From assembly GCA_030141605.1 (NCBI GenBank), contig JAQGDQ010000265.1, forward strand, positions 250,941 through 314,940: a stretch of DNA of 64,000 nt. The letters run 5' to 3'. Positions 19,717 through 64,000 of this stretch are shown here, in pieces. Both the position numbers and the translations under genes were made by a program. Position 1 is the first letter of the stretch; each line of letters begins with the position of its first letter. The stretch is from Tubiluchus corallicola. Its lineage: Eukaryota; Animalia; Priapulida. The notes beneath the pieces were generated by a model. The model worked only from the letters and a program-made list of their open reading frames with translations, was not told the origin of the DNA and did no database searches.

Positions 19717-19829
19717 GGGGCTTGTCTCTCTATTAATATTTTTGTCAAAACTCTCATTTAACTGACAAGTTAAGGTTTTTTTGACTCCTCAACGTGGAAG
19801 CCAGTAAGTTAAGCTTCTTTACATGTTTT
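19717..19829 (+). repeat. 113-bp direct repeat, left flank of IS1634-like copy 1
   Basis: Identical to 21477-21589; abuts the TIR exactly. Confidence 0.95.
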
Positions 19830-21476
19830 CCTGTTTTGTGCACCACAACGACGCCCCAAGAATGCACTACTGATTATCAGCAAGATAGGAATTTCAAATT
19901 TGCATTTTGGGTGCTGCATGCTTAATTTTATGCATGTTTGTCCGAAAAAATAAGAATCGGAGTGGTTCTGTGAGTGTACAGATAATCTCAAAAAATCATG
20001 GTAAATATAAGGTTGTAAAAACCGTAGGTTGCGCAAAAACAAAGCGGGAAGAAGAATTGCTTTTATTGCTTGCCAACACAGAGATAGAGCGGCTTAGGGA
20101 CATGCAATCGCTTTTTGTTGAACACGATGATTTGGTGGTTGAAAACTTTGTGGGCAGCATTGCAAACAATCATTTACAAGTTGTAGGAAGTGAATTAATT
20201 TTAGGCAAAATTTATCAAGTCTTTAACTTTCCGGATGATGGGTGCTGCAATTATTTTCGCAACCTGGTATTATGTCGGTTAGTGTACCCGGGAAGCAAAT
20301 TAAAAACCGTTGACTATTTTAGACAGCACCTGAATACAGATGTTAGCGTACACACTATTTATCGTTTCCTTGACGAGCTAAATACAAGTTTAAAGCCACA
20401 AATTGAACAACTTACCTTTAAGCACACCAGGAAGCTACTAAAAGGAAAGATAAGTGTCGCATTTTATGATATGACCACATTGTATTTTGAGGCATCAGAA
20501 GAAGATGACTACCGTATTCCCGGATTCAACAAAGATGGCAAGCATCAACAACCGCAAATAATGATAGGTTTACTGGTGGGTAAATATGGATACCCGATTG
20601 GCTATCAAATATTCGAGGGAAACACCTCTGAAACAAAAACACTAATCCCTGTTCTGGAAGCCTTTCAAAATAAATTTAATATCGAAAGGCCTATTGTAGT
20701 TGCCGATGCAGCTTTACTCTCGCAGAAGAACATAAATGCCTTGATTGAAAACAAATACGAGTACATACTTGGAGGACGGATAAAGAATGAAAGTCAAAAA
20801 ATAAAAGAAAAAATTATAGCTCTTGATATTAAAGAAAACAAGCCAGTTGAGTTGAAAAACAAGAATGGAAGGTTGATTATCAGCTTCTCAGAAAAAAGAG
20901 CCTTCAACGATAAAAAAAACAGAGAGAAGGGCTTAAAAAGACTTGAAAAACGTGTTGCTTCCGGCAAGCTAACAAAGAATCACATAAATAATCGCGGGTA
21001 TAATAAATATCTGAATCTGTCGGGGGAGATTGCCGTTAAAATCGACTACGATAAGTTCCAGTCAGATAGAGTTTGGGATGGGTTGAAGGGTTATGTAACC
21101 AATACCCATTTACCGAGAAAAGATGTTATCGGGAATTATAGTCAGTTGTGGCAAGTGGAAAAAGCTTTTCGTATATCAAAAACTGATTTACGAATACGGC
21201 CAGTTTATCACCGCTTAAAAGAACGCATTGAAGCCCATATCTGTATTTGTTTCACAGCCTATGCCATTTACAAAGAGCTGGAAAGGTTATTGAGGGCAAA
21301 TAATATTGATATCTCTGCTGAAAAAGCCTTGGAACAAATCCGGCAGATCAGGCAGCTGCAATACACTCTGCCCAAATCGAAACAAGTCAGAACAAAAATA
21401 TTACAGCCAACTGAAATGCAAAAAAAGTTGTTAAATATGAAATTATAAACTTGGGTGCTGCAATGCACAAAACAGG
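19830..21476 (+). mobile_element. IS1634-like element, copy 1 (1647 bp)
   Basis: TIR CCTGTTTTGTGCA...TGCACAAAACAGG; single DDE transposase; near-identical copies at 35639 and 62327. Confidence 0.93.
19934..21448 (+). CDS. IS1634-family transposase
   Basis: MFVRKNKNRSG start, FYDMTTLYFE, GFNKDGK, VVADAAL and WQVEKAFRISKTDLRIRPVYH motifs. The ORF track starts at 19907. Confidence 0.92.
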   Translation: MFVRKNKNRSGSVSVQIISKNHGKYKVVKTVGCAKTKREEELLLLLANTEIERLRDMQSLFVEHDDLVVENFVGSIANNHLQVVGSELILGKIYQVFNFPDDGCCNYFRNLVLCRLVYPGSKLKTVDYFRQHLNTDVSVHTIYRFLDELNTSLKPQIEQLTFKHTRKLLKGKISVAFYDMTTLYFEASEEDDYRIPGFNKDGKHQQPQIMIGLLVGKYGYPIGYQIFEGNTSETKTLIPVLEAFQNKFNIERPIVVADAALLSQKNINALIENKYEYILGGRIKNESQKIKEKIIALDIKENKPVELKNKNGRLIISFSEKRAFNDKKNREKGLKRLEKRVASGKLTKNHINNRGYNKYLNLSGEIAVKIDYDKFQSDRVWDGLKGYVTNTHLPRKDVIGNYSQLWQVEKAFRISKTDLRIRPVYHRLKERIEAHICICFTAYAIYKELERLLRANNIDISAEKALEQIRQIRQLQYTLPKSKQVRTKILQPTEMQKKLLNMKL

Positions 21477-21589
21477 GGGGCTTGTCTCTCTATTAATATT
21501 TTTGTCAAAACTCTCATTTAACTGACAAGTTAAGGTTTTTTTGACTCCTCAACGTGGAAGCCAGTAAGTTAAGCTTCTTTACATGTTTT
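21477..21589 (+). repeat. 113-bp direct repeat, right flank of IS1634-like copy 1
   Basis: Identical to 19717-19829. Confidence 0.95.
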
Positions 21590-21634
21590 TATGCTGAAGT
21601 TTACCTTCTTTAAAAATTAAAGATGTAAATTCGC

Positions 21635-32936: not shown

Positions 32937-34394
32937 ATGATAAAAAGATTATACCTGCAATCTGTTTCAGCATGTTTATTTGCATTGTTTTTTACTAGTT
33001 GTTTTTCGTGTCCCGAGACAGGGAAGTCCACATCTGTTGGAGGGAGTGATGCCCGCAAGTACTGGAAGTTGTCAGAGGTGCAGTCCGGAGACGAAGGTCT
33101 TTTGTTTGGAGATAAAGCATCTAAAATAGTATCCAGGTTTACGTTGAAAAATTTTGAAGTTTCAGCGAAGATTAAGTCTTCTGGAGGGGCATCAGGTGTT
33201 ATAGGGTTTCACTATAAAGGTGGTGTTTCACCAAGTGGGTATAGAGTGTATATAAATAACAGTGATTATGGTACAGGGTGCAGGCAGAAGACCGGCAGCC
33301 TCTGTAATATAAGGAATAATTATGTAAGTACAGCTTTTGAAGATGAGTGGTTTAAGCTGAATATATCCGTTCGTGGAAATCATATAAAGGCGTCTGTTAA
33401 TGATAAAGTTATAAGCGAGTATTTTGAGCCTAAGACACCTGTAAGGCGGAGTAAGTTTGCGAAGATGCTGCTTTCACAAGGGAAGTTGTTTGTTGAAAAA
33501 GTAACAGGAGAGGGGGAGATAGTTGTGGGGGAGTTACTTGTTTATCCGCTGGAAGATGATGTTGTGGCTTGTGGTGCTCTTGATGCAAAGGAGGATGAGG
33601 TGCAACAGGTGTTGACACTTCTCAACCAGGATGGGTTTCCTTTAATTGATTATCACGGGCACCTGAAAGGAGGTCTTACTGCGGAGCAGGCCCGGCGGCA
33701 TGGTAGGAGTCATGGGTTTAATTATGGAATAGCTGTTAACTGCGGGTTGAAGTTTCCTGTAACCAGAGATGAGTCGCTTAATAAGTATATAGATAGTATT
33801 CGAGATGAGCCTGTCTTCAAAGCTATGCAGTGTGAGGGGCGTGAGTGGGTTACACTTTTCTCTCCTGAAGCGGTAGCAAAGTTCGACTATATTTTTACAG
33901 ATGCTATGACATGGACAGATCATAAGGGAAGGCGGATGCGCCTTTGGCTACCGGATGAGGTTGTTGTGGAAGATGAGCAGCAGTTTATGGATATGCTTGT
34001 TGAGAAGATTGAGTCTATACTAAAGTATGAGCCGATTGATATTTATGTAAATCCCACATATCTGCCGGAAGTGATAGATAAAGATTATGACAGGTTATGG
34101 ACGCCTGAAAGGATAGATCGTGTTGTAAAGGCATTGAAAAGCAATGATGTAGCGTTGGAGATCAATGCGCGCTTCAGGTTGCCAGGTATAGCTCTTGCCA
34201 AAAAAGCAAAAGAGGCGGGTGTTAAGTTTTCATTTGGCACTAACAACGGAAGTAATGATGATCTGGGAAGGCTTGAGTATTGCTTAGAAGTAATAAAAGA
34301 GGTAGGGATAGAGCCGGATGATATTTTTACGCCTCGTCCCAAAAATGATAAAAAAGTCATGGTGATGGGAATACCTTCAGAAGTAACCGGATAG
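32937..34394 (+). CDS. DUF1080 (3-keto-disaccharide hydrolase-like) plus PHP-like domain lipoprotein
   Basis: Lipobox, KTGSL...WFKLNISVRGNHI (DUF1080-like), DYHGHLKGG and ALEIN...FSFGTN motifs. Confidence 0.7.
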   Translation: MIKRLYLQSVSACLFALFFTSCFSCPETGKSTSVGGSDARKYWKLSEVQSGDEGLLFGDKASKIVSRFTLKNFEVSAKIKSSGGASGVIGFHYKGGVSPSGYRVYINNSDYGTGCRQKTGSLCNIRNNYVSTAFEDEWFKLNISVRGNHIKASVNDKVISEYFEPKTPVRRSKFAKMLLSQGKLFVEKVTGEGEIVVGELLVYPLEDDVVACGALDAKEDEVQQVLTLLNQDGFPLIDYHGHLKGGLTAEQARRHGRSHGFNYGIAVNCGLKFPVTRDESLNKYIDSIRDEPVFKAMQCEGREWVTLFSPEAVAKFDYIFTDAMTWTDHKGRRMRLWLPDEVVVEDEQQFMDMLVEKIESILKYEPIDIYVNPTYLPEVIDKDYDRLWTPERIDRVVKALKSNDVALEINARFRLPGIALAKKAKEAGVKFSFGTNNGSNDDLGRLEYCLEVIKEVGIEPDDIFTPRPKNDKKVMVMGIPSEVTG

Positions 34395-35638
34395 ATACAG
34401 TAGATGAAAAAGGGGGATCTTCTTTGTAAGCAGGCCTGGAGGGCTAGAGAGCCCGTTTTGATAAAGGTGTCAGCTAAAAAGATGAGCTTTATAGAAGGCT
34501 TAGCTTTTTTTATTACTTTTGTTGGTAAGGTTGTGAGGTGAAAGAGTCAATATAATTTCGGTTACAGCTTTTAGAGTGTAGTAGATTCCAGTATTACAAT
34601 TTAAAATATTAAAAGCATGAAAAAATTTGTTCTCTGTTTTGTAGTTTCTGTATTTATTGCTTGTAGCAGCTTCGCTCAGACAATTGACCTTGGAGTAAAA
34701 GCGGGACTGAACACTTCGTGGTTTTCAACTGCTGCAACTGGGCTGGATTTAAGTGAGCTTTCTTTTTCCGATTTTAGTACTGATAAGACCAAGTCTGGCT
34801 ATAGTTTTGGTCTCTTTGCTCGTGTTGGTAAGAAGCTTTATCTTCAACCCGAGCTTTTGTATTCTAAAAAAAGCGGGATTACAAATTTTCAAAGTGGTGA
34901 GGTGTCTGCCGAGCAAATCCAGTATAATCAGGATATCTCCGTTACTTCTTTGGATATTCCCCTGTTGCTTGGGTACAAAGTTTTAGACCTCAAACTTCTT
35001 TCTGTACATGCCTTTGCCGGTCCTGCTGCTTCTATTGTTCTTGATAAAGAGTCCAGCCTTTTGGATATTGACAGTAACACAATAGTTGATGCGGGAAACA
35101 ACTATAATTCCCTCATATGGGATCTCCAGTTCGGAGCGGGTATTGATATAGCTAAATTTACTTTTGATGTAAGGTATTCAATGGGGATAACAAATATCAG
35201 TGACGCTAGTTACGACAGTATCATAGATGAATTTAATTTTGAAAATAAAGCGAACTACCTCACATTCTCTTTAGGGTTTAAGCTATTCTAGTGAGTTTTA
35301 ATGTGAGGAGTTATATTCTACTATAACAGAAGGTTGTGGTGTAAAATATAGAGCCCTTGAAAGTCAGTTGGCTCTTGAGGTTTTTAAGTCTGTGTTTTTC
35401 ATTTTTTCGATTTTCCTTGAAAGTCAGTTAGCTCTTGAGGGCTTCTCTATTTTATAGATATAGGCCATCACCTTTGGAGCCGTAAAGCTTTTATGAGATA
35501 GGCCTTTTGCCTGCTTTTTGCAAAGAATCTTTAAAATCCCTGCTTACTACTTCGGGTTCGTATCAAATTTTCTCTCGAGTTAAGTTTTAAATACTTCTCT
35601 TTAAAGGAACTTCATTGTTATTAAAAATATATTAACTT
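34081..35638 (+). repeat. 1558-bp direct repeat, left flank of IS1634-like copy 2
   Basis: Matches 37285-38833 with at least 8 substitutions and 3 indels; ends exactly at the TIR. Confidence 0.95.
34617..35291 (+). CDS. Outer-membrane beta-barrel (porin family, OMP_b-brl_2-like) protein, copy A
   Basis: Signal peptide, LGVKAGLN, YLQPELLYS, LDIPLLLGYK, FDVRY and terminal F. Confidence 0.85.
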   Translation: MKKFVLCFVVSVFIACSSFAQTIDLGVKAGLNTSWFSTAATGLDLSELSFSDFSTDKTKSGYSFGLFARVGKKLYLQPELLYSKKSGITNFQSGEVSAEQIQYNQDISVTSLDIPLLLGYKVLDLKLLSVHAFAGPAASIVLDKESSLLDIDSNTIVDAGNNYNSLIWDLQFGAGIDIAKFTFDVRYSMGITNISDASYDSIIDEFNFENKANYLTFSLGFKLF

Positions 35639-37598: not shown

Positions 37599-37820
37599 AT
37601 ACAGTAGATGAAAAAGGGGGATCTTCTTTGTAAGCAGGCCTGGAGGGCTAGAGAGCCCGTTTTGATAAAGGTGTCAGCTAAAAAGATGAGCTTTATAGAA
37701 GGCTTAGCTTTTTTTATTACTTTTGTTGGTAAGGTTGTGAGGTGAAAGAGTCAATATAATTTCGGTTACAGCTTTTAGAGTGCAGTAGATTCCAGTACTA
37801 CAATTTAAAATATTAAAAGC

Positions 37821-46953: not shown

Positions 46954-48562
46954 ATGGAACTGAAAATATTCAATAGCATCCTGTTTGGAGAGCTTCAGCC
47001 ATTCACAGGAAACAATCGTGAAGAAAAGTACTTCACATCAAAGCTCAACCCAACATTTAAAGTGCCTGGCACAATGGAAGAGTTTGAAGCTGAGTTAAAG
47101 AAAGCACTGGCAGAACATCCTTTCCTTTTAAATAAAGAAGAGTACTATGTAAACCTCAACCCTGAAGAAGGAAAAATTGAAATCAGTGGAATAAGAGATG
47201 AAGTCTTTGAACCGGGCATTGATATTGACATTCCACCATATTTCAACTCCACTACCGAGTACTACTATTACCTTATCAAAAATGAAGGCACACGAATCAT
47301 TCATGAGCTTGCTCATGAAATACAGGCTATGGGAACCCATGCTGATGGTAGATTCCTGCTTCAAAAGGTCTTACTACAAACTGAATACTTACTTAAAGAA
47401 TACTGCTAAAGAATTAAAATTTCTTCCAAACACTGATACTCCATTCTATCAACCAACCAATGAAGAAACCGATACCGAGCGTATTCAGATGAATACACAT
47501 TTTGTGTACTACACTTTACAAATCACCTTGATAAGGGTTTACTATGAGATCCTTTCAACTTTTTCCTCTTTCGTTGGCGACTTGGGAAAGACCGCATCAG
47601 AACTTTATGCCCAGGTATTAGGGAAAACACCTCCCGAAATCACTTACCAAAAAGTCTCGAAGGGACTAGCGATACGCAGAGCACAGAATATTGCGGATAC
47701 TCAGGATTTTAAGGAAGACAAAGCACATTCAGTTCTAAAAGAACTTCATGACCTCCTGATCAGCGATACAAGTAACTCAAAGTTAATTCAAGCCATTACC
47801 GCAATTGAGAATCGACTTTTCATTGAAGCTCAATTGGAAGACCCGAAGCAACATTCATTTGAAGACCTATACGCTCCTTCATTTGCAGATAGCCTATTTA
47901 AAACCATTAAGGCTCAATACAAAGCAGAGATTGAACAGTTTGTTTTTGGACATGAACGATTTGAGCAGATAGAAGAAATTCAGGATGCGTCTAATATCGT
48001 GCCTGAGCTTCCTAAAGTAGCAGATTCTACCTTGAAGCATAGTGTATGTCGTAAGTTGAACCACTGGCTGGAAACCCAAAAGGAATTATATCGAAATCAC
48101 TTTACCCAGACATTTACAGCTACGCAAATTGGGAAAGGATCAAATGAACAAAAAGCAACACCAAAGGCTAAGCGTGAGCGGCCTGATTTTGCTTCGCAAA
48201 AAGGCACTGCTAGGAATTTCCTCAATTTCTTATCTGGCAACAATCCACAGCAGGATAAGATCATGAAAGATGATGATTACAATCGCTTGTTGCAGATGGT
48301 GGATTTTCTGATTGAAAATGAAAAGCTCCCTGACAAAATCAACAAGATTTCTCAAATCAACATTAGTACGGGTATGATCCGCTATACCTTTTACCTAATC
48401 CATAAAGAGCTATACACCACAAAAACCATCAAACCTGAATGGATTGATTTTTTACATGCGGTATTTGAACAATTCAAGAATATTGAATGGAATACCACCA
48501 AAACAAAATTTAGTGTTAAACCCTCTAGCTATCAGCATGATATGAAATCTATGGAAGGGTAA
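46954..48562 (+). pseudogene. Island hypothetical protein split by a frameshift
   Basis: ORFs 46954-47409 and 47198-48562 overlap in different frames; protein-like sequence switches frame near 47400. Confidence 0.65.
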
Positions 48563-50548: not shown

Positions 50549-51886
50549 GACACTGTTTCACAAAGTGTGTAAACTAAAAAAATACCGAGGGTTTGGCTAT
50601 TTATAGCTGGACCCTTTTTTCAAATATAACTAAGAACTGATTCAAGACAATGCCCCAGTTTCTGATTGGCATTGACCATTTTTTAGTTGCTTCTCTGGTT
50701 GCCAAAAATACAGATTTCATTACAGCCTGGTCTGACGGGAATGAAAGTTTGTTTTTTGTGTATTTTCTGATTTTTCCGTTGAGATTCTCAATCAGGTTGG
50801 TTGTATAAATTATCTTTCTGATTTCCAGCGGAAACTCAAAGAATACTGTTAGGTCTTCCCAGTTGTCTCGCCAGCTTTTAATTGCGTAAGAGTATTTATC
50901 CTCCCAAGCTGCTGCAAAATCTTCTAAAGCTGCTTTTGCAGCCTCTTTTGTAGGGGCATTATAGATTTGCTTCATATCTTTTGTAAATGCCTTTTTATCT
51001 TTCCAAACCACGTATCTGCTTGCGTTACGGATTTGATGAACAACACATATTTGTGTTTTAGATTCAGGGAAAACAGTTCGGATAGTATCTGTAAAACCAT
51101 TCAAGTTATCTGTTGCCGTAATCAGAATATCGTTAACTCCACGGGCTTTCATATCGGTAAGTACGTTCATCCAAAAGGCAGCGGACTCACTCTTGCCCAA
51201 CCATAAGCCAAGAACCTCTTTTTTCCCATCTCTGCGAAGTCCTACGGCAATGTAAACGGTTTTGTTGACGACCTTAGAGTTCTCCCGCACTTTAAATACA
51301 ATGCCATCCATCCAAACAATTAGGTATACAGTTTCCAGAGGTCGGTTCTGCCACGCTACAATGTCGTTGGTGACTGAATCGGTAATCCTTGATATGGTGG
51401 ATGTGGAAACTTCAAAACCGTATAGCTCCCGAATTTGCTCTTCAATATCGCTATTACTCATTCCTTTAGCATAAAACGAAACAATGATATTCTCTAAGCC
51501 ATCGACCATGTTCCCTCCTTTGGGTACAATCATCGGATTAAACGAAGAATCACGGTCTCGGGGAACCTGAATGTTGGATTCTCCCAGAGTGGTTCGGACT
51601 CTCTTCTCTGAATAGCCATTGCGGGCATTCTGATTATCCGATTTTTGATTCTTATCATAGCCTAAATGACCATCGAGTTCTCCTTCAAGCATCTTTTCAA
51701 TGCCTCGTTTTTGGAGCTCTTGTAAAAAACCATTGAGCTCTTCCCCTGAATTAAACTGTTCAAGGAAATCATCATTTAATAAATCTTCTTTTTTCATTAC
51801 TGTCTAAAGTTTTAAAATTAAACAAAAAAATGCCGAGGGTTGCAACCCTCGGCATTTTCTATTTACACAGTTTATGAGATAGTGCT
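50549..51886 (-). mobile_element. IS256-family element, copy 1
   Basis: Imperfect ~25-bp TIR (GACACTGTTTCACAAAGTGTGTAAA / TTTACACAGTTTATGAGATAGTGCT); no matching target duplication. Confidence 0.9.
50601..51797 (-). CDS. IS256-family (mutator) transposase
   Basis: [26 protein letters not shown] and IYTTNLIE motifs. Confidence 0.95.
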
Positions 51887-51917
51887 TAAACTTGGGTGCT
51901 GCAATGCACAAAACAGG
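51887..51917 (+). mobile_element. 31-bp right-end remnant of the IS1634-like element
   Basis: TAAACTTGGGTGCTGCAATGCACAAAACAGG is identical to 21446-21476. Confidence 0.92.
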
Positions 51918-53106
51918 ACGTAGACGAGATTGTCCGCGACCATGGCGTTAGCAGAGCCTCGTTTTATAAATGGAGGCAACGTTTTGGAGGCATGGAAGCA
52001 TCCGAGTTAAAAAGGCTCAAAGAGCTTGAAGAGGAGAATCGCAAGTTAAAAATGATGTATGCCGAACAATCTCTGGATTTAAAACTCGCCAAAGAGATTA
52101 TCGAAAAAAAGCTTTAAATCCTTGTGAAAAACGAGAGATTGCAAAAGAAGTTTGCAAAGTTCCTAAAGTAGGCATCCGCAGGGCTTGCCGAGTACTAAAT
52201 ATGAGTCGTTCGGTTTATTATTATGAATCGATAAAAGATGATGCAGGGATAATTGAGGCGCTTACCAAAAAAGCGTAAGACCATCCTACAGAAGGATTCT
52301 GTAAAGCCTATGGGCGATTGCGTCTGGAAGGTTACGATTGGAACCACAAGCGAGTATATCGGGTTTACTGCCTGATGAAACTAAATATCCGCAGGAAAGT
52401 AAAGAAGAGGCTTCCTGTCAGAGTTAAGGTTCCTTTGGTAATTCCAGAAAACATCAATCAGTGCTGGTCAATTGATTTTATGCACGATGCTCTTGAAAAC
52501 GGACGGAAGATAAAGAGTTTCAATATAATGGACGATTTTAACCGAGAAGCACTTCATGTTGAACTTGACCATTCGATTCGAAGTAACAAAGTAGTTTATG
52601 TTTTGAACCACTTGATAAAGCGTAGAGGTAAACCAACAAAAATAAGGATGGATAATGGCCCTGAGTTTATTGCAGAACTTTTAAAAGAATGGAGTGAGCT
52701 TCAAGGGATAGAACTGTTATATATTCAGCCAGGCAAGCCAACACAGAATGCTTTTGTAGAACGCCTGAACGGAACATACCGCAGGGCTGTATTGGATGCC
52801 TACCTGTTTCAGTCGCTGGATGAAGCCAGGGATGAAACAGATAAATGGATATTTGATTACAACTATAAAAGGCCGCATGATTCATTGGGAGGAATGACCC
52901 CCATAGGTTATGCCAATAAAATGAAAAACCAAAAGCTGAAAAGCAAAGTAAATGTGATTCATGAACCTGTCAAGGGTATATAAACGACTTCGCTCACTCA
53001 GTCGCCCTTGACAGAACCAAAAATCACACTGAAAAAGCTTTCAGAATTTGGTTATGAAAAAGAAAATAATCTATTTTTAAGTAGTCCTAAAAAGGGGAAG
53101 CTTACA
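51918..53106 (+). mobile_element. IS3-family element (IS407-like), 5'-truncated
   Basis: orfA tail, A7G slippery site near 52104, orfB ([21 protein letters not shown]) with a premature TAA at 52276; right end ...AAAGGGGAAGCTTACA. Confidence 0.85.
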
Positions 53107-53470
53107 GAGCTTTTTAATACGCCAGATCAAAATAGACAAATAGCAGCTTTTTATCTCGATAAAAACCAATTCTTAAGGGACGACTGATAACTATCATAGA
53201 AGATAATTAACTTTGGCACAGATAAGAATTAGACTTGGGCGGATTTTGCAGCAAACTAGCAAGTAAGAAATTTAAAAATACTTAGCAAAAGCCGGTTCAG
53301 TTTTGAGACAGAAGCATGATTATGATGGTTTGAGTCTTTAGGAAGAATTTGTTGAAGTAACAGTAGTATTGTAAGAAGTTTTATATAAGATTTTAGAAGA
53401 AGGAATAAATTCATGCTGATTTTATTTTTGTTTTGTGAATAGAAGTGATCATAAGTAGAGTTAACAATAT

Positions 53471-54460
53471 ATGGAAAATAATAAACAAGTTTTAGTTACA
53501 GGAGCTGATGGCTTTATTGGATCTCATTTAACAGAATTGTTATTAGAAAAGGGAGCTCATGTAAAGGCTCTTTCTTTGTATAACTCATTCAATTACTGGG
53601 GATGGTTGGAAGATGTAAAAGAAAATGATAAGCTTGAAGTAGTATCAGGAGATATTCGTGATCCTCACTTTTGTAAACACCTAACAAAAGACATTGATGT
53701 GATTTATCACTTAGGAGCATTAATAGCAATTCCGTACTCTTATTTAGCGCCTGATTCTTATGTAGATACAAATATAAAAGGAACCTTAAATATTTGTCAA
53801 GCAGCAATAGAAAACGGATGTAAACGTGTGATACATACCTCTACATCAGAAGTATATGGGACAGCTCAATATATTCCTATAGATGAAAAACATCCCAAAC
53901 AACCACAGTCTCCTTACTCTGCTTCTAAAATTGGAGCAGATGCAATGGCAATGAGCTTTTATAATGCCTTTAACCTACCAGTAACGATAGTTCGCCCTTT
54001 CAATACTTATGGTCCCAGACAATCAGCCAGAGCTATTATCCCTACAATCATTACACAAATTGCAAATGGAGTAGAAGAAATTAAACTAGGAGATCTTTCC
54101 CCAACAAGGGATTTTAACTTTGTAGAAGATACTGCTGCTGGATTTATAGCTGTTTCAGAGTGTGATTCCTTAATAGGAGAAGAAGTTAATATCTGTTCTA
54201 ACTTTGAAATATCAATGAAAGATACTTTAGAGCTGATAAAGAAAATTATGAACTCTAATGTTAGATTTGTAACAGAACAGCAACGTATCAGACCAGAAAA
54301 ATCAGAAGTGTTTAGACTTTGGGGAGACAATACAAAACTATTAAAACACACTGGGTTTAAAACAAAATATTCTATTGAAGAAGGACTGAAAAAAACCTGT
54401 GAGTGGTTTGCAGATTTGGATAACCTGAAAAAGTATAAAGCTAGCATTTATAATGTATAA
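53471..54460 (+). CDS. legB: NAD-dependent 4,6-dehydratase, LegB-like
   Basis: VTGADGFIGSHL, ALIAIPYSY, STSEVYG, YSASK and RPFNTYGPRQSARA motifs. Confidence 0.85.
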   Translation: MENNKQVLVTGADGFIGSHLTELLLEKGAHVKALSLYNSFNYWGWLEDVKENDKLEVVSGDIRDPHFCKHLTKDIDVIYHLGALIAIPYSYLAPDSYVDTNIKGTLNICQAAIENGCKRVIHTSTSEVYGTAQYIPIDEKHPKQPQSPYSASKIGADAMAMSFYNAFNLPVTIVRPFNTYGPRQSARAIIPTIITQIANGVEEIKLGDLSPTRDFNFVEDTAAGFIAVSECDSLIGEEVNICSNFEISMKDTLELIKKIMNSNVRFVTEQQRIRPEKSEVFRLWGDNTKLLKHTGFKTKYSIEEGLKKTCEWFADLDNLKKYKASIYNV

Positions 54461-55598
54461 AGATATTGTAACCTATATAAGAAAACTCTATAACACAGAA
54501 AGCTTTATTCCTCTTCACGAACCGAGATTCTATGGCAATGAGCGAAAGTATGTTATGGATGCAATTGACTCAACATTTGTTTCTTCAGTAGGAGAATATG
54601 TGAACCGTTTCGAAACCATGATGGCAGAAGTAGCAGGAACACGTTATGCTGTGGCAACTGTAAACGGAACAGCCTCTTTGCATATTGCACTGATACTTTC
54701 CGGAGTGAAAAAAGGCACAGAAGTCATCACCCAGCCATTAACCTTTGTGGCTACTGCTAATGCAATTACTTATACAGGTGCTGTTCCCGTGTTTGTAGAT
54801 GTTGATAAAACAACACTTGGCCTTTCTCCAGATGCGTTGAGAGATTTCTTAGAAAACAAAACAGAACAAAGAGGAGGTTTCTGTATTAACAAAAATACCG
54901 GAAGACAAGTTACAGCATGTGTGCCGATGCACACTTTTGGTTTTCCCTGTAGGATTGATAAAATAGTAGAAATATGCAATACCCATAACATTCAAGTGGT
55001 TGAGGACGCAGCAGAATCAATAGGAAGTAAATACAAAGGACAAGCAACAGGGAGTTTTGGAAATCTGGGGATCTTTAGTTTTAATGGAAATAAAACCGTT
55101 ACTTGTGGGGGAGGTGGAGCAATTACCACAAATGACGAAAAACTAGCTAAACTGGCAAAACACATTACAACAACAGCAAAAGTCCCTCATAAATGGGAGT
55201 ATATACATGATATGCCAGCCTACAATTATCGAATGCCTAACTTGAATGCAGCAATGGCTTGCGCACAGCTGGAACAACTGGATGATTTTATAAAACGAAA
55301 AAGAACTCAGGCGCGTAAGTATGCTGATCTTTTTGAAAAAACCAACATCCGATTCTTGACAGAAGAAAAAGATGCATTTGCAAACTACTGGTTAATGTCT
55401 ATTGTCTTCAATAACTTTGAAGAAAGAGAAAAGTTTTTGACATATACAAACGAAAAGGGAGTTATGACACGTCCAATTTGGAAGTTAATGCATAAGCTGG
55501 CTATGTATAAAGATTGTGAGGTAGCTTCTTCAGATAATGCAGAGTGGTTAGAAGAAAAAGTTGTAAATATACCTAGTAGTGTAATTAGTAATGGATAA
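54453..55598 (+). CDS. legC: LegC-family aminotransferase
   Basis: IPLHEP, NGTASLH, EDAAES, SFNGNK and YNYRMPNLNAA motifs. Confidence 0.88.
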   Translation: MYKDIVTYIRKLYNTESFIPLHEPRFYGNERKYVMDAIDSTFVSSVGEYVNRFETMMAEVAGTRYAVATVNGTASLHIALILSGVKKGTEVITQPLTFVATANAITYTGAVPVFVDVDKTTLGLSPDALRDFLENKTEQRGGFCINKNTGRQVTACVPMHTFGFPCRIDKIVEICNTHNIQVVEDAAESIGSKYKGQATGSFGNLGIFSFNGNKTVTCGGGGAITTNDEKLAKLAKHITTTAKVPHKWEYIHDMPAYNYRMPNLNAAMACAQLEQLDDFIKRKRTQARKYADLFEKTNIRFLTEEKDAFANYWLMSIVFNNFEEREKFLTYTNEKGVMTRPIWKLMHKLAMYKDCEVASSDNAEWLEEKVVNIPSSVISNG

Positions 55599-56220
55599 AA
55601 AAGAAATTATTCTTGTTGGTGGTGGTGGGCACTGTAAGTCTTGTATAGATGTAATTGAACAAGAAAATAAATATACAATTGCAGGAATTGTTGATTTGCC
55701 CGAGAAAATTGGGGAAAAAGTACTAGGATATCCAATTATTGCTTCTGATGAAGATTTAACACTTCTTGCCCAAAAGTATAACTACTTTCTAATAACTGTC
55801 GGGCAGATTAAAAACGCGAACTTGAGAAAGAAATTTTTTAACAGATTGAAAAAATTAGGTGTAGAATTACCTATAATAAAATCGCCTTTAGCCTATGTAA
55901 GTGAATATGCACAAGTTGGAGCTGGTAGTATCATTATGCATAGAACCACTGTAAATGCAGAAGCTGTTGTTGGACACAACTGTATCTTGAACACAGGATG
56001 CTTGCTTGAGCATGAAGTGGTAGTGGGAGACCATTGTCATATTTCTACGAACGCAGTCATTAATGGTCAAACGCATTTAGGGAATGAATGCTTTGTGGGA
56101 AGTAATACTGTACTCGCAAATAATATTAATGTTGCTGATAATTCAATAATTTCAGCTGGGAGTAATGTAACCAATAAACCAACCAGGGATATATTCAGGA
56201 GAGCCCATAAGAAAAATTAA
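55591..56220 (+). CDS. NeuD/PglD-family hexapeptide acetyltransferase
   Basis: GGGGHCKSCIDVI, left-handed beta-helix repeats and LEHE. The C-terminus looks frameshifted. Confidence 0.85.
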   Translation: MDKKEIILVGGGGHCKSCIDVIEQENKYTIAGIVDLPEKIGEKVLGYPIIASDEDLTLLAQKYNYFLITVGQIKNANLRKKFFNRLKKLGVELPIIKSPLAYVSEYAQVGAGSIIMHRTTVNAEAVVGHNCILNTGCLLEHEVVVGDHCHISTNAVINGQTHLGNECFVGSNTVLANNINVADNSIISAGSNVTNKPTRDIFRRAHKKN

Positions 56221-56226
56221 ATAATT

Positions 56227-57234
56227 GTGAAAACGTTAATAATTGCAGAAGCAGGAGTAAACCATAACGGAAACCTTCAAATTGCTAAGAAGCTAATAAT
56301 TGAAGCAGCTAAAGCTGGAGCTGACTATGTAAAATTTCAAGTCTTTATAGCAGAATTAAATATAGTAGAAACCGCAGAGAAAGCAGTATACCAAAAAAAG
56401 AATACAAGTGATAGTTCAGAAACGCAGTTAGAGATGGTGCGGAAATTAGAACTAAGCTTTGAACAGTTTGAGCAACTTCAGCAAATTTGCAGAAATAATC
56501 ACATAGGTTTTCTTGCAACAGGTTTTGATCATCCAAGTATAGACTTTCTTGCAGAGCTCAACATCCCCTTTTTTAAAATTCCTTCTGGAGAGATTACCAA
56601 TAAACCATACCTACAACATATTGCTAAAAAAGGGAAACCACTTATTGTAAGTACAGGTATGGCAAATATGGAAGAAATAAAGAAGGTGTTAGATGTTTTT
56701 ACAGAAGAAGGGATAAGTAAAAACGACATAACTGTATTGCACTGTAATACAGAATACCCCACTCCAATGCGAGATGTAAATTTAAAAGCCATGAATACTA
56801 TCAAAGAAAACCTTGGAGTTACTATAGGCTACTCAGATCATACTTTAGGAATTGAAGTGTCTATAGCAGCAGTAGCCCTTGGAGCAAAGGTAATAGAAAA
56901 GCATTTTACACTTGATAGAAACATGGATGGCCCGGATCATAGAGCATCTCTAGAGCCTGGTGAGTTGAAAACAATGATCGAAGCAATTCGAAATGTAGAA
57001 TTAGCTATTTCTGGATCAGGCATAAAAGAACCAAGCCCGAGCGAACAAAAAAATATAAATATTGCTCGAAAAAGTATTGTAGCAGCAAAGAAAATAACGA
57101 AAGGCGAGGTATTTACTGACGAAAACCTGACTGTTAAACGTCCGGGAAAAGGAATGAGCCCAATGAAGTGGAATGAAATACTGGGAAAGGTAGCTAAAAG
57201 ATCATTTGAAAAAGACGAATTGATTGAAATATAG
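56227..57234 (+). CDS. neuB: Nonulosonate synthase (NeuB/LegI)
   Basis: IIAEAGVNHNG, KIPSGEITN, GYSDHT, IEKHFTLD and a SAF domain. Confidence 0.92.
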   Translation: MKTLIIAEAGVNHNGNLQIAKKLIIEAAKAGADYVKFQVFIAELNIVETAEKAVYQKKNTSDSSETQLEMVRKLELSFEQFEQLQQICRNNHIGFLATGFDHPSIDFLAELNIPFFKIPSGEITNKPYLQHIAKKGKPLIVSTGMANMEEIKKVLDVFTEEGISKNDITVLHCNTEYPTPMRDVNLKAMNTIKENLGVTIGYSDHTLGIEVSIAAVALGAKVIEKHFTLDRNMDGPDHRASLEPGELKTMIEAIRNVELAISGSGIKEPSPSEQKNINIARKSIVAAKKITKGEVFTDENLTVKRPGKGMSPMKWNEILGKVAKRSFEKDELIEI

Positions 57235-57262
57235 GAAATAGATTAATAATTACAATTATAAT

Positions 57263-58015
57263 ATGAAGATTGTTTTTATAGGAACAGTTTTGTTTAGTGA
57301 AAAGATTCTGTCAAAACTGATAGAGCTAAAAGCAAATATTGTTGGAGTCATAACTAAAGAAGAATCAGACTTTAATTCAGACTTTGTTGATCTGTCAGAA
57401 ATAGCTACAAAAAACGAACTTCCTTTTAAATATGTAGACAATATAAACAAAGAGGAGAATATAAACTGGATAAAAGAAAAAACCCCAGATATTATCTTTT
57501 GCTTTGGGTGGTCTCAACTATTAAAAAAAGAAGTTTTGAATACTCCTAAAATGGGAGTTGTTGGCTTCCATCCAGCGAAACTACCTATGAATAGAGGGAG
57601 GCATCTCCTGATCTGGACCTTGGCATTAGGTTTAGAGGTATCTACTTCTACTTTCTTCTTCATGTCCGAAGGAGCTGATGATGGAGATATCCTATCACAA
57701 TCCGAGGTTGATGTATCAAGTTCAGATGATGCTTATAGTTTATACAACAAAATAGTGAGAACAGGAGTAGAGCAAGTAGAAAAGGTTTATCCAGAATTAT
57801 GTAATGGTACGTACAAAAGAGAAAAACAGAATCATAGTTTGGCTAATTATTGGAGGAAAAGAAATAAAAATGACGGATTAATTGATTTTAGAATGAATGC
57901 AAGTACCATATATAATCAAGTAAGAGCACTTACCAGATCTTATGTTGGAACCCGTATATTCTCTTTAGTAAACAGAATAGTAATCCCTATTCTATATAAA
58001 CGATATAAAATATGA
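57263..58015 (+). CDS. Sugar N-formyltransferase (Fmt-like), possibly C-truncated
   Basis: MKIVFIGT, FCFGWSQLL, GFHPAKLPMNRGRH and ADDGDILSQ motifs. Confidence 0.8.
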   Translation: MKIVFIGTVLFSEKILSKLIELKANIVGVITKEESDFNSDFVDLSEIATKNELPFKYVDNINKEENINWIKEKTPDIIFCFGWSQLLKKEVLNTPKMGVVGFHPAKLPMNRGRHLLIWTLALGLEVSTSTFFFMSEGADDGDILSQSEVDVSSSDDAYSLYNKIVRTGVEQVEKVYPELCNGTYKREKQNHSLANYWRKRNKNDGLIDFRMNASTIYNQVRALTRSYVGTRIFSLVNRIVIPILYKRYKI

Positions 58016-59172
58016 AAAAAATATGCGTATTTACTGGTACACGGGCAGAATATGGTTTGCTTTTTCAGCTAATAAAAAAACTCAAACATGATGACCAGTT
58101 AAAACTGCAGCTAATAGCAACAGGTATGCATTTATCACCTGAGTTTGGATTGACTTATAAGGAGATAGAAAAAGATGGGTTCTCGATAGACAAAAAAATT
58201 GAAATATTGCTTTCTTCTGATACAGCAGTAGGAATTTCTAAAACAATAGGACTGGCACAAATCTCATTCGCAGAAGCTTTAGAAGGTCTAGAGCCAGACT
58301 TACTCATAATATTGGGAGACAGAACAGAGGCTTTTGCAGTAGCCAGCTCCGCGTTAATCGCAGGAATTCCCATTGCTCACATACATGGGGGAGAATTAAC
58401 AGAAGGTGTTTATGATGATGCGATAAGACATTCAATAACAAAAATGAGTCATCTACACTTTACCTCAACAGAAGATTATCGTAAAAGAGTTATCCAATTG
58501 GGAGAACAGCCCTCTACTGTTTTCAATGTAGGAGCAATAGGCCTAGATAACATAAAACACCTAAAATTATTAAATAAAAAGGATCTTGAAAAAGCAATTG
58601 GTTTTAAACTAGGGAAAAAGAACATCTTGGCCACCTTCCATCCTGTAACATTGGAAAATTTGACAGCACAAGAACAGTTTAATGAACTGTTAAAGGTTTT
58701 TGAAGAATTACCGGATACTCATATTATTTTTACAAAGCCAAACTCTGATAAAGGAGGGAGAATCATAACTCATATGATAGATACTTTTGTAAAAAAATAT
58801 CCTGAAAGATCTGTTGAATTTGAATCTTTAGGGCAATTAAGATACCTTTCTACTATGAAACATGTAGATATTGTTATAGGTAACTCTTCGAGTGGAATTC
58901 TTGAAGCACCCGCTTTTAATATGCCTACTGTTAATATTGGAGACAGACAAAAAGGACGAATCATGGGAGAAACCATTTTAAACTGTGAGCCTAATAAAAA
59001 TAGCATCAGGAAATCAATAGAAAAGGCCTTTCAGTTTAATCGGAATATCAAAAGAGGATATCCTTATGGAAACGGAACTGCTTCAGAAAAAATATTGAAA
59101 ATCCTAAAAGAAACAAGCTCAATAGATATTAAGAAAATTTTCTACGATTGTAAAATATCAGGAGATGAATGA
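58012..59172 (+). CDS. neuC: Hydrolysing NDP-sugar 2-epimerase (NeuC/LegG)
   Basis: TGTRAEYG, TGMHLS, LGDR, HIHGGE and GNSSSG motifs. Confidence 0.92.
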   Translation: MKKICVFTGTRAEYGLLFQLIKKLKHDDQLKLQLIATGMHLSPEFGLTYKEIEKDGFSIDKKIEILLSSDTAVGISKTIGLAQISFAEALEGLEPDLLIILGDRTEAFAVASSALIAGIPIAHIHGGELTEGVYDDAIRHSITKMSHLHFTSTEDYRKRVIQLGEQPSTVFNVGAIGLDNIKHLKLLNKKDLEKAIGFKLGKKNILATFHPVTLENLTAQEQFNELLKVFEELPDTHIIFTKPNSDKGGRIITHMIDTFVKKYPERSVEFESLGQLRYLSTMKHVDIVIGNSSSGILEAPAFNMPTVNIGDRQKGRIMGETILNCEPNKNSIRKSIEKAFQFNRNIKRGYPYGNGTASEKILKILKETSSIDIKKIFYDCKISGDE

Positions 59173-60205
59173 TTTCTCTAAAAGTATAATATACCATTCA
59201 GAAAGTGCTCTAGAAGCCTTGAAGAAATTAAATAAAGTTCCAAAAACTTTGACACTATTTGTTCTAGATGAAAATAAATGTTTAACAGGAACACTTACTG
59301 ATGGTGATATTCGCAGGGGGTTGATTAACGGTTTATCTGTGAATGATATGGTTACGGCATTTATGTCAACTAGATTTCATAAAATAGAAAATGGCTTTTC
59401 AGTATGGGATCTTAGAAGAGTACGTGATTTAGGCATAAGGTTACTTCCTCTTCTTGATGAGCACCAGCGCATAATAAAGGTTTATGATCTGAAGAAGCGA
59501 AAAAGTATCCTTCCGCTTGAGTGTATGATTATGGCTGGAGGAAAAGGAAAACGATTACGACCACTTACAGAAATCAAGCCAAAGCCCATGTTACCATTGG
59601 GGAATAAGCCCATTATTGAACACAATATTGATCGGTTAGTCAGGTATGGAATTGAAAAATTTTATATATCTGTTAAATATCTGGGGCAGCAAATTGTAGA
59701 TTATCTTGGAGATGGATCTTCAAAAGGAGTTTCAATTGAATATGTTTGGGAAGACAAACCTTTAGGTACTGCAGGAGCATTATCTTTGGTGACTAATTTT
59801 CAGTCTGATCACATTCTGGTAATGAATAGTGACTTATTTACTGATGTTGACTTTGAGGATTTATACCTGAATACTTTGAATGCTTACGCCGAAATAGGAA
59901 TTTCGTCAGTACCCTACACAGTAAATATTCCATATGCTATTTTTGATGGAGATGGTAATAGAGTATTGTCCTTTAAAGAAAAACCTAATAATACATACTA
60001 TGCTAATGCAGGCATATATATTCTAAAAAAAGAAATAGTTAAGCGAGTTCCTTATAATGAGTTTTATAATATTACAGACTTAATTCAGGATGTATTGGAT
60101 AGTGGAGGCAATGTTATACAAAATCCAATTTTTGGTTATTGGATTGATATTGGAAGACATGAAGATTATAATAAAGCACAAGAAATCGAAAAACATATTA
60201 GATAA
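59165..60205 (+). CDS. CBS-domain nucleotidyltransferase (PtmE-like)
   Basis: GTLTDGDIRR CBS motif, MAGGKGKRLRPLT and PLGTAGAL motifs. Confidence 0.88.
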   Translation: MNDFSKSIIYHSESALEALKKLNKVPKTLTLFVLDENKCLTGTLTDGDIRRGLINGLSVNDMVTAFMSTRFHKIENGFSVWDLRRVRDLGIRLLPLLDEHQRIIKVYDLKKRKSILPLECMIMAGGKGKRLRPLTEIKPKPMLPLGNKPIIEHNIDRLVRYGIEKFYISVKYLGQQIVDYLGDGSSKGVSIEYVWEDKPLGTAGALSLVTNFQSDHILVMNSDLFTDVDFEDLYLNTLNAYAEIGISSVPYTVNIPYAIFDGDGNRVLSFKEKPNNTYYANAGIYILKKEIVKRVPYNEFYNITDLIQDVLDSGGNVIQNPIFGYWIDIGRHEDYNKAQEIEKHIR

Positions 60206-60931
60206 ATGAAAATATTAATAACCGTATGCGCACGAGGGGGATCTAAAGGAATTCCTAAAAAAAACATAAAAAAAATTTTAGGGAAACCACTTTTGCATTA
60301 TTCTCTTGAGCAGGCAATTGAGTTAAAAAAAAGATGGAAATATGAAGTTGAAATTATAGTATCCACAGATTGTAATGAAATTTTAGACTGTGCGAGACAA
60401 GCGGGTATAGAGTGTCCATATATACGTCCGGATTTTTTAGCAACAGATACTATAGGAAAAGTAGATGTGTTATATGATGCACTTTTCTTCTCTGAAGACC
60501 ATTTTAAGTGTGAGTTTGACTATTTGTTAGATTTGGATGTAAGCTCTCCGTTGAGGACCTTGAAAGATATTCAGGATGCTTTAGATTTAATAGAGTCTGA
60601 CGCTAATGCTTTAAATTTATTTTCAGTCAGTCTCGCAAATAGAAATCCCTACTTTAATATGGTAGAAAAAAAGAATAATGGATATTATTCATTGATTTGC
60701 AAGCCCGAAAATGATGTCCTTTCAAGACAAACCGCACCAAGTGTTTATGACTTAAATGGATCTTTTTATATTTACCGTAAAGAATTTTTTGATTTAAGAT
60801 TAAAAACAGCTGCTACAGAAAGGTCTATGATTTATGTAGTACCTCATATTTGTTTTGACTTGGATCATCCTATTGATTTTGACTTTATGACTTATCTTAT
60901 AGAGAATAAGAAACTAGACTTTAAGTTATGA
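60206..60931 (+). CDS. Acylneuraminate cytidylyltransferase (NeuA/LegF/PtmB-like)
   Basis: CARGGSKGIPKKN, STD, SPLR and RQTAP motifs. Confidence 0.9.
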   Translation: MKILITVCARGGSKGIPKKNIKKILGKPLLHYSLEQAIELKKRWKYEVEIIVSTDCNEILDCARQAGIECPYIRPDFLATDTIGKVDVLYDALFFSEDHFKCEFDYLLDLDVSSPLRTLKDIQDALDLIESDANALNLFSVSLANRNPYFNMVEKKNNGYYSLICKPENDVLSRQTAPSVYDLNGSFYIYRKEFFDLRLKTAATERSMIYVVPHICFDLDHPIDFDFMTYLIENKKLDFKL

Positions 60932-60934
60932 TCA

Positions 60935-61084
60935 TGAATATTCCGGTGAAAGTGTACACCCAATCCGGAGTAAAGAGTACAATCTGATTTTAGATAGTGC
61001 TAACTGACTAAAAATATTGTATTACTGTAGCATCTTTCAAAGTGGCACTGTTTGACCGAAAAGAGTGGCACGGTCACACCGAAA
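60935..61084. mobile_element. Short IS21-like end/MITE remnant
   Basis: Begins TGAATATTCCGGTGAAAGTGTACACC with a second subrepeat; inverted subrepeats AGTGGCAC...ACCGAAA at the far end, cut by IS256. Confidence 0.55.
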
Positions 61085-62326
61085 GACACTGTTTCACAAA
61101 GTGTGTAAACTAAAAAAATACCGAGGGTTTGGCTATTTATAGCTGGACCCTTTTTTCAAATATAACTAAGAACTGATTCAAGACAATGCCCCAGTTTCTG
61201 ATTGGCATTGACCATTTTTTAGTTGCTTCTCTGGTTGCCAAAAATACAGATTTCATTACAGCCTGGTCTGACGGGAATGAAAGTTTGTTTTTTGTGTATT
61301 TTCTGATTTTTCCGTTGAGATTCTCAATCAGGTTGGTTGTATAAATTATCTTTCTGATTTCCAGCGGAAACTCAAAGAATACTGTTAGGTCTTCCCAGTT
61401 GTCTCGCCAGCTTTTAATTGCGTAAGAGTATTTATCCTCCCAAGCTGCTGCAAAATCTTCTAAAGCTGCTTTTGCAGCCTCTTTTGTAGGGGCGTTATAG
61501 ATTTGCTTCATATCTTTTGTAAATGCCTTTTTATCTTTCCAAACCACGTATCTGCTTGCGTTACGGATTTGATGAACAACACATATTTGTGTTTTAGATT
61601 CAGGGAAAACAGTTCGGATAGTATCTGTAAAGCCATTCAAGTTATCTGTTGCCGTAATCAGGATATCGTTAACTCCACGGGCTTTCATATCGGTAAGTAC
61701 GTTCATCCAAAAGGCAGCGGACTCACTCTTGCCCAACCATAAGCCAAGAACCTCTTTTTTCCCATCTCTGCGAAGTCCTACGGCAATGTAAACGGTTTTG
61801 TTGACGACCTTAGAGTTCTCCCGCACTTTAAATACAATGCCATCCATCCAAACAATTAGGTATACAATTTCCAGAGGTCGGTTCTGCCACGCTACAATGT
61901 CGTTGGTGACTGAATCGGTAATCCTTGATATGGTGGATGTAGAAACTTCAAAACCGTATAGCTCCCGAATTTGCTCTTCAATATCGCTATTACTCATTCC
62001 TTTAGCATAAAACGAAACAATGATATTCTCTAAGCCATCGACCATGTTCCCTCCTTTGGGTACAATCATCGGATTAAACGAAGCATCACGGTCTCGGGGA
62101 ACCTGAATGTTGGATTCTCCCAGAGTGGTTCGGACTCTCTTCTCTGAATAGCCATTGCGGACATTCTGATTATCCGATTTTTGATTCTTATCATAGCCTA
62201 AATGACCATCGAGTTCTCCTTCAAGCATCTTTTCAATGCCTCGTTTTTGGAGCTCTTGTAAAAAACCATTGAGCTCTTCCCCTGAATTAAACTGTTCAAG
62301 GAAATCATCATTTAATAAATCTTCTT
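61085..62326 (-). mobile_element. IS256-family element, copy 2, interrupted at the transposase 5' end by IS1634-like copy 3
   Basis: Near-identical to 50549 onward; breaks within the first few codons of the transposase. Confidence 0.92.
62272..62326 (+). repeat. Inferred 55-bp direct repeat flanking IS1634-like copy 3
   Basis: 63974-64000 (27 bp visible) repeats 62272-62298; the remainder lies beyond the window. Confidence 0.8.
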
Positions 62327-63973
62327 CCTGTTTTGTGCATTGCAGCACCCAAGTTTATAATTTCATATTTAACAACTTTTTTTGCATTTCAGTTGGCTGT
62401 AATATTTTTGTTCTGACTTGTTTCGATTTGGGCAGAGTGTATTGCAGCTGCCTGATCTGCCGGATTTGTTCCAAGGCTTTTTCAGCAGAGATATCAATAT
62501 TATTTGCCTTCAATAACCTTTCCAGCTCTTTGTAAATGGCATAGGCTGTGAAACAAATACAGATATGGGCTTCAATGCGTTCTTTTAAGCGGTGATAAAC
62601 TGGCCGTATTCGTAAATCAGTTTTTGATATACGAAAAGCTTTTTCCACTTGCCACAACTGACTATAATTCCCGATAACATCTTTTCTCGGTAAATGGGTA
62701 TTGGTTACATAACCCTTCAACCCATCCCAAACTCTATCTGACTGGAACTTATCGTAGTCGATTTTAACGGCAATCTCCCCCGACAGATTCAGATATTTAT
62801 TATACCCGCGATTATTTATGTGATTCTTTGTTAGCTTGCCGGAAGCAACACGTTTTTCAAGTCTTTTTAAGCCCTTCTCTCTGTTTTTTTTATCGTTGAA
62901 GGCTCTTTTTTCTGAGAAGCTGATAATCAACCTTCCATTCTTGTTTTTCAACTCAACTGGCTTGTTTTCTTTAATATCAAGAGCTATAATTTTTTCTTTT
63001 ATTTTTTGACTTTCATTCTTTATCCGTCCTCCAAGTATGTACTCGTATTTGTTTTCAATCAAGGCATTTATGTTCTTCTGCGAGAGTAAAGCTGCATCGG
63101 CAACTACAATAGGCCTTTCGATATTAAATTTATTTTGAAAGGCTTCCAGAACAGGGATTAGTGTTTTTGTTTCAGAGGTGTTTCCCTCGAATATTTGATA
63201 GCCAATCGGGTATCCATATTTACCCACCAGTAAACCTATCATTATTTGCGGTTGTTGATGCTTGCCATCTTTGTTGAATCCGGGAATACGGTAGTCATCT
63301 TCTTCTGATACCTCAAAATACAATGTGGTCATATCATAAAATGCGACACTTATCTTTCCTTTTAGTAGCTTCCTGGTGTGCTTAAAGGTAAGTTGTTCAA
63401 TTTGTGGCTTTAAACTTGTATTTAGCTCGTCAAGGAAACGATAAATAGTGTGTACGCTAACATCTGTATTCAGGTGCTGTCTAAAATAGTCAACGGTTTT
63501 TAATTTGCTTCCCGGGTACACTAACCGACATAATACCAGGTTGCGAAAATAATTGCAGCACCCATCATCCGGAAAGTTAAAGACTTGATAAATTTTGCCT
63601 AAAATTAATTCACTTCCTACAACTTGTAAATGATTGTTTGCAATGCTGTCCACAAAGTTTTCAACCACCAAATCATCGTGTTCAACAAAAAGCGATTGCA
63701 TGCCCCTAAGCCGCTCTATCTCTGTGTTGGTAAGCAATAAAAGCAATTCTTCTTCCCGCTTTGTTTTTGCGCAACCTACGGTTTTTACAACCTTATATTT
63801 ACCATGATTTTTTGAGATTATCTGTACACTCACAGAACCACTCCGATTCTTATTTTTTCGGACAAACATGCATAAAATTAAGCATGCAGCACCCAAAATG
63901 CAAATTTGAAATTCCTATCTTACTGATAATCAGTAGTGCATTCTTGGGGCGTCGTTGTGGTGCACAAAACAGG
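62327..63973 (-). mobile_element. IS1634-like element, copy 3 (1647 bp)
   Basis: Same TIRs as copies 1 and 2; intact transposase ORF. Confidence 0.93.
62355..63869 (-). CDS. IS1634-family transposase
   Basis: Nearly identical to copy 1 (a few amino-acid differences). Confidence 0.92.
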   Translation of the reverse strand: MFVRKNKNRSGSVSVQIISKNHGKYKVVKTVGCAKTKREEELLLLLTNTEIERLRGMQSLFVEHDDLVVENFVDSIANNHLQVVGSELILGKIYQVFNFPDDGCCNYFRNLVLCRLVYPGSKLKTVDYFRQHLNTDVSVHTIYRFLDELNTSLKPQIEQLTFKHTRKLLKGKISVAFYDMTTLYFEVSEEDDYRIPGFNKDGKHQQPQIMIGLLVGKYGYPIGYQIFEGNTSETKTLIPVLEAFQNKFNIERPIVVADAALLSQKNINALIENKYEYILGGRIKNESQKIKEKIIALDIKENKPVELKNKNGRLIISFSEKRAFNDKKNREKGLKRLEKRVASGKLTKNHINNRGYNKYLNLSGEIAVKIDYDKFQSDRVWDGLKGYVTNTHLPRKDVIGNYSQLWQVEKAFRISKTDLRIRPVYHRLKERIEAHICICFTAYAIYKELERLLKANNIDISAEKALEQIRQIRQLQYTLPKSKQVRTKILQPTEMQKKLLNMKL

Positions 63974-64000
63974 AGCTCTTCCCCTGAATTAAACTGTTCA

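Follow-up and report, generated by a model that had tools for sequence, protein, structure and literature searches.

How might one DDE transposase come to lie between direct repeats of an inferred 55 bp, of 113 bp and of more than 1.5 kb within a single stretch of DNA? The usual product of a DDE transposase is a short target duplication whose length does not vary. The locus analysed here, a 64,000-nucleotide stretch (hereafter the window; positions 250,941–314,940 of contig JAQGDQ010000265.1 in the Tubiluchus corallicola assembly GCA_030141605.1), carries three copies of an IS1634-family insertion sequence (IS), each set between direct repeats of host DNA of very different length. Together with a survey of relatives, the window points to an IS1634-family element with long, variable host duplications, each end of which probably makes its own strand transfer on one DNA duplex. 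Relatives of the transposase and of a porin-type gene in the window belong mostly to the Bacteroidota, and the bacterial host of the element is therefore likely a member of this phylum.

Three IS copies between long host repeats

Mapping by self-BLAST and direct comparison places the three copies, which are 99.6–99.7% identical and all have perfect 13-bp inverted ends, at 19830–21476 (copy 1, plus strand, 1,647 bp), 35639–37284 (copy 2, minus strand, 1,646 bp) and 62327–63973 (copy 3, minus strand, 1,647 bp). Copy 1 encodes an intact transposase of 504 amino acids (19934–21448, plus strand) with the DDE triad D179/D258/E409, and copy 3 an intact transposase open reading frame (ORF; 62355–63896); the transposase of copy 2 is split by a 1-bp deletion that shifts the frame. 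Copy 1 lies between identical 113-bp repeats (19717–19829, intergenic after a fucosidase gene, and 21477–21589; BLAST E 8e-53), copy 2 between repeats of 1,558 bp (34081–35638) and 1,549 bp (37285–38833), and copy 3 between a sequence at 62272–62326 and its counterpart at 63974–64000, which matches 62272–62298 and displays 27 of an inferred 55 bp before the window end cuts the rest. The initial annotation had reported these lengths, with repeats ending exactly at the termini of three full-length copies, and all of its coordinates hold; it had overlooked the frameshift in copy 2 and, described below, the empty IS256 site and a lone right end. The 113-bp repeat folds no better than shuffled sequences (z −1.25).

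Copy 3 sits in an IS256, close to where its transposase gene has its 5′ end, and an intact sister IS256 in the window (50549–51886, minus strand) provides its empty allele, carrying the 55-bp target once, at 51736–51790. A longer repeat of 1,242 bp (50549–51790/61085–62326), considered as a target duplication, was rejected because it corresponds to the IS256 pair.

The window transposase scores 363.6 bits against the NCBIfam IS1634 model NF033559 (cut-off 100), which bears out the IS1634-like identity proposed from sequence inspection. The element is a single-ORF unit of 1,646–1,647 bp, inside the 1,500–2,000 bp tabulated for the family in the available part of PMC2266710. Its triad is conserved with a spacer of 151 amino acids between the second Asp and the Glu, its YREK region reads Y402-x2-L-x3-E-x6-K, without the Arg, as the family expects, and its ends fit the family pattern C-----YT, inverted, with T at positions 7 and 8. 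The 5–6-bp AT-rich duplication of the majority IS1634 type is absent, the window repeats being those of 113, 1,558 and, as inferred, 55 bp; the published long-repeat exception inside the family covers these elements.

Anchored repeats and empty sites among relatives

Loci of relatives were drawn from genome collections and plasmids. A first set gave 119 transposase matches, 102 with both element ends and 83 with at least 1 kb on both sides. A repeat of at least 8 bp anchored at the termini flanks 70 of these 83 elements (71 of 102 with one short-flank locus added). Among the 13 misses, four form two same-genome pairs whose flanks cross-match at 320 and 129 bp, in one direction each, one is offset by 5 bp (131-bp repeat) and eight are unexplained. 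The second set comprised 20 loci, 17 with both ends and 13 with long flanks; 11 of the 13 have repeats of 49–402 bp, and the remaining two have swapped flanks reciprocally (281/156 bp). Of the 15 misses across both sets, 6 belong to pairs from one genome whose flanks cross-match; L003/L036, L028/L029 and L245/L248 are such pairs, in inverted arrangement, and in same-genome pairs the long repeats act as barcodes for inversions.

The 80 repeats outside the window range from 8 to 704 bp (median 128 bp), and only three are 14 bp or shorter. Many survey rows are copies in one genome and count as separate insertions, not separate transposases. Judged by these sequences, long variable repeats are a clade-wide trait. 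The initial annotation had expected empty sites to carry each repeat once. Collinear, IS-free orthologous sites with a single copy were found for L219 (438 bp), L221/L223 (407 bp) and L212 (518 bp), and for two more, L044 (506 bp) and L112 (680 bp), the empty site is collinear on one side only. The expectation found no counterpart at the 1.56-kb site, where none of 90 upstream-gene loci carried the porin or transporter gene. The 680-bp repeat of L112 (5206–8302), a locus on an Aliarcobacter plasmid, duplicates only the 3′ portion of a Crp/Fnr gene, which is now present once in full and once in truncated form.

Target preference, repeat length and gene context

At the left junction a T stands beside the element in 63 of 71 cases and at the right junction in 64 of 71 (background frequency 0.31), with 10 of 11 on either side in the second set; the next two places beyond it are pyrimidines. 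This T lies within the duplicated sequence and is therefore target-derived. The junction preference is alike in the short, medium and long length classes and, because it is the same at both junctions at every length, both ends likely use the same chemistry, in agreement with the initial proposal that the two ends attack distant target positions. The ends of the repeats share no similarity or microhomology (z 0.2). The preference for pyrimidine, pyrimidine, T at both ends, over distances between the ends from 8 up to about 1,550 bp, is directly supported, as are family membership, the anchoring of repeats at both termini and the single-copy empty sites.

Repeat lengths fit an exponential distribution with a mean of about 150 bp (Kolmogorov–Smirnov p 0.88, n = 80; Akaike information criterion (AIC) 967 against 973 for a lognormal), with no shortage of short lengths, and a heavy-tailed (Lomax) fit collapsed into the exponential. 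A memoryless search would yield exponential lengths, and looping of stiff naked DNA would not. Two further ideas were discarded: helical phasing, because a weak peak near 10.1–10.2 bp was lost under a jitter null (p 0.09–0.23), and a hairpin or cruciform target, because there is no excess complementarity inside the repeat (z −2.65). Just outside the repeat complementarity is in excess (z +3.27, the largest of 26 tests), which is unexplained and may be compositional.

With ORFs called mechanically, 11 of 67 repeats fall entirely within an ORF of at least 150 amino acids, where a preference-matched null predicts 39.1. Among 34 insertions with a junction in an ORF, 23 reach across a gene boundary and preserve an intact copy. 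Surviving insertions seldom disrupt a gene; they likely survive selection because a long repeat often extends past the edge of a gene and keeps one copy of it whole.

The 1.56-kb repeat and its porin gene

Only one of the 67 repeats tested, the 1.56-kb repeat of the window, holds a whole ORF of at least 150 amino acids. Its left copy comprises the 3′ end of gene 32937–34394 and an intact porin-type gene (34617–35291), and its right copy an orphan gene fragment up to 37598 and a porin duplicate (37821–38486), just beyond which lies a transporter gene (38866–40644). The copies differ by eight substitutions and three indels (15, 3 and 3 bp). Compared with 11 homologues (the best porin relatives are 46% identical), the left porin copy agrees at all three indels and at L80, and two almost invariant residues, an Asn and a Leu, are lost from the right copy, which identifies the latter as a decaying duplicate. 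All three indels in the duplicate are in frame, without explanation, and its three substitutions all change residues. To call the element a gene-duplicating device, as had been suggested, is therefore an overstatement: a whole ORF was duplicated in this single instance, and the second copy has lost conserved residues.

Both junctions of the 1.56-kb repeat fit the target preference. Contig evidence comes from runs X1, X2 and X3 of one sample, probably the source and hence not independent; the small-share runs X4–X17 were left out, X5 among them covering only parts of the element. Contigs break 30 bases inside the repeat edges (at 34110 in X2 and at 38805 in X1, X2 and X3), X2 depth within the repeat is 37–50 against 21–34 in the flanks, and one X1 contig, flat in depth, crosses the left copy carrying the letters of the right one at two sites. 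In X1 the element reaches about 14 times the depth of its flanks (about 900 against 65), which suggests many copies.

A transposase clade without the Arg after the second Asp

A midpoint-rooted tree of 37 proteins (19 from the survey and 18 from distant plasmid elements; IS1549 and IS1634 themselves are not in it) splits 11 proteins that read D-R-G at the second Asp from 26 that read D-[AS]-[GA] (bootstrap 100/95). On the D-R-G side, seven of 11 have 5–6-bp repeats, one has none and three are without clear ends. The other side groups elements with long repeats from Rhodococcus (95, 61 and 27 bp) and Carnobacterium (about 300–430 bp, one end damaged), together with L228, which has no repeat, and L237, which lacks clear ends; end calls on this side favoured pairs with a repeat and so are less safe. 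The split may already be shown in Additional file 10 of PMC2266710. No Arg follows the second Asp in the proteins that could be parsed, 118 of 120 close homologues and 55 of 56 locus proteins. In Tn5, R189 beside the active-site D188 contacts target DNA (available part of PMC2229646).

A structure model of the window transposase (predicted local distance difference test score 79.6) best matches the Tn5 and piggyBac transposases, with Tn5 on top (Foldseek E 4e-6, template modelling score about 0.32). A clamp-like motif resembling Q-L-x-L-F lies at residues 57–61, in a low-confidence loop, and is canonical in some relatives. It is also canonical in a second IS1634-family element (L054–L064), about 32% identical and with repeats of 20–312 bp, whose genome (G001) additionally holds a close relative of the window element. 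Separately, 11 of the 12 copies in G079:C1 give split transposase matches, all broken at residue 272–273, for which spread of a frameshifted copy or programmed frameshifting can be suggested.

Proposed mechanism and alternatives

We propose that each transposon end likely carries out its own transfer, the two using different short half-sites of the target that lie on opposite strands of a single duplex, and that the intervening DNA would then be copied by strand-displacement synthesis. The two active sites would not be locked on one bent target; instead the second end may find its site by a memoryless one-way search, either through extension of a nick or by tracking, for which the sliding clamp may serve as a tether, and the lack of a target-binding Arg behind the second Asp may help to uncouple the ends. 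The excess of duplications would be more in keeping with repair of one duplex from its free 3′ ends than with attack on both sister chromatids. A more ambitious version is rather unlikely to hold as a whole: that one clade (Bacteroidota, Actinomycetota and others) uncoupled its active sites through an Arg-to-Ala/Ser change and an N-terminal clamp motif, that the second end tracks the target and joins it after a memoryless distance, that a whole gene (1.56 kb) can thus be duplicated in one step without recombination, that most surviving insertions are non-disruptive, and that a single residue can switch between 5-bp and long repeats.

Several observations weigh against the proposal. Eight of the 83 long-flank elements have neither a repeat nor an explanation for its absence, all lengths come from existing insertions filtered by selection, no new insertion having been observed, and orientation relative to GC skew (48:30, p 0.054) reveals no significant replication-direction bias. 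No sequencing record among those listed spans the 1.56-kb repeat–IS–repeat stretch, and one repeat of at least 1,549 bp among 82 has a probability of 0.003 under the exponential, which rises to 0.025 when the mean is set to its upper limit; a lognormal gives 0.24, but fits 6 AIC units worse. As for the protein, the Arg split lies on one branch, so that it is one evolutionary event and a lead only, and L230, a D-A-G protein on the long side, has a 5-bp repeat. The clamp-like motif is weak in the window protein, and a loose pattern matched only 33 of 56 proteins. A clamp-binding Acidiphilium IS1634 has been published (available part of PMC4549789), with its motif at the C terminus, and both sampled Acidiphilium elements fall in the short-repeat clade; clamp binding alone would therefore not explain long repeats.

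The alternative that comes closest to an even chance, while staying somewhat short of it, accepts the short and medium repeats as true duplications and makes the 1.56-kb repeat a two-step product, either of two same-orientation insertions about 1.5 kb apart that recombined across chromosomes or of the later loss of outer copies whose own repeats recombined with each other. Such a route would also leave transposase-type junctions at both ends, and it gains from the length itself, since 1,549 bp is more than twice the next longest of the 80 (704 bp) and an outlier under the exponential. Copies do recombine, as the three same-genome pairs attest, and the X1 depth suggests that many are available. 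It needs several steps and two insertions close together, however, and no element remnant stands at either outer end of the repeat; the repeat scale also varies from element to element (Kruskal p 0.03). A chimera of strains or of the assembly, formed through the repeated element and a quite improbable origin for the structure, would account for the lack of a spanning record, for the mixture of two copies' letters in the X1 contig and for the different flank depths of X2 and X3, whereas the breaks 30 bases inside the repeat edges are as expected if both junction types exist, X2 depth rises within the repeat, and 11 events separate the copies, only one of which is damaged at conserved residues. 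For the 1.56-kb repeat taken alone, we put one insertion event at about an even chance, the two-step route a little lower and a chimera at a small fraction.

Two further readings concern the chemistry of all repeats. Entry of the two ends into two sister chromatids behind a fork, with a crossover joining staggered positions, would account for independent site choice at both ends and would suit transposases of the IS1634 family that bind the replication clamp (PMC4549789, in its available part). It predicts deletions as often as duplications, along with broken ends, and duplications dominate (70 of 83 and 11 of 13), also among short lengths, at which a deletion would frequently do no harm; nor is there a significant orientation bias here or, in the available part of PMC3971601, for IS1634. 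We consider this version unlikely, so that the initial suggestion of attack on distant sites stands and its sister-chromatid form is weakened. A transposase that joins one end only, leaving host repair or microhomology to make the other junction, would likewise yield variable lengths and could produce the repeat-less elements and the one offset by 5 bp, yet the same preference at both junctions, the exact anchoring at both termini and the dissimilar repeat ends make it very improbable. Strand transfer by each end on one duplex remains the reading we prefer.

Relation to known systems

Long variable repeats are an already known oddity of IS1549 (Mycobacterium smegmatis) and IS1634 (Mycoplasma mycoides), with 8–514 bp against 5–6 bp in other family members; the available part of PMC2266710, which divides the family into three clusters, offers no mechanistic model for them as of 2008. 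The initial annotation had stated this property correctly. The elements studied here resemble these two in having one DDE transposase, short inverted ends starting with C and long variable direct repeats, and differ in repeats of up to 704 bp (relatives) and 1,558 bp (window) and in hosts that are mostly Bacteroidota. Short-repeat IS1634-family elements such as ISGka5 of Geobacillus (6 bp; available part of PMC8024623) share the family annotation and similar ends, but are about 1.9 kb long with 5–6-bp repeats and D-R-G, in a separate clade. Tn5/IS50, the top structural match, makes a fixed 9-bp repeat from two linked active sites and retains its R189 target contact. The IS1202 group forms its own clade with unusually long duplications, of only 16–28 bp, and a TnsB-like transposase (available part of PMC10132070); restriction-modification insertions produce long variable target duplications of up to about 420 bp (available part of PMC2853133) without a transposase or inverted ends. 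The available parts of PMC3053259 and PMC11004492 give no IS1634 repeat lengths, and a literature search with subscription papers outside its coverage returned no paper on kilobase repeats, end preference or mechanism for the family.

What is added is thus a quantitative pattern and not the 1.56-kb case alone: a symmetric junction preference, exponential lengths without phasing, few broken genes, and a long/short clade split with Arg loss. The window supplies two intact transposases, and concrete predictions follow from the survey: half-sites chosen symmetrically, spacings distributed exponentially, a one-way polarity and a candidate residue. Long repeats would also account for the way in which these elements accumulate with little damage to genes, and for the failure of pipelines that seek short repeats to recognise their boundaries. 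The case for the element as an origin of new genes that endure is thin, with a single, decaying example.

Other features of the window

The same-orientation IS256 pair (50549–62326) brackets an IS3 remnant and a 7.5-kb sugar-synthesis cluster (53471–60931) with an epimerase, a DegT aminotransferase, NeuB, a formyltransferase, a UDP-N-acetylglucosamine 2-epimerase and a cytidylyltransferase. The bracketed stretch looks like a composite transposon in an integrase-led island after mnmE. One island ORF (47198–48562, 454 amino acids) has no Pfam or NCBIfam match. Two distant matches came from a search among phages. The lone right end of a fourth IS1634-family copy (51887–51917, plus strand, 31 bp) lies between an IS256 end and the IS3-family gene remnant; the IS256 end stands where the body of this copy would be, and this lone end possibly originated through an IS256 adjacent deletion.

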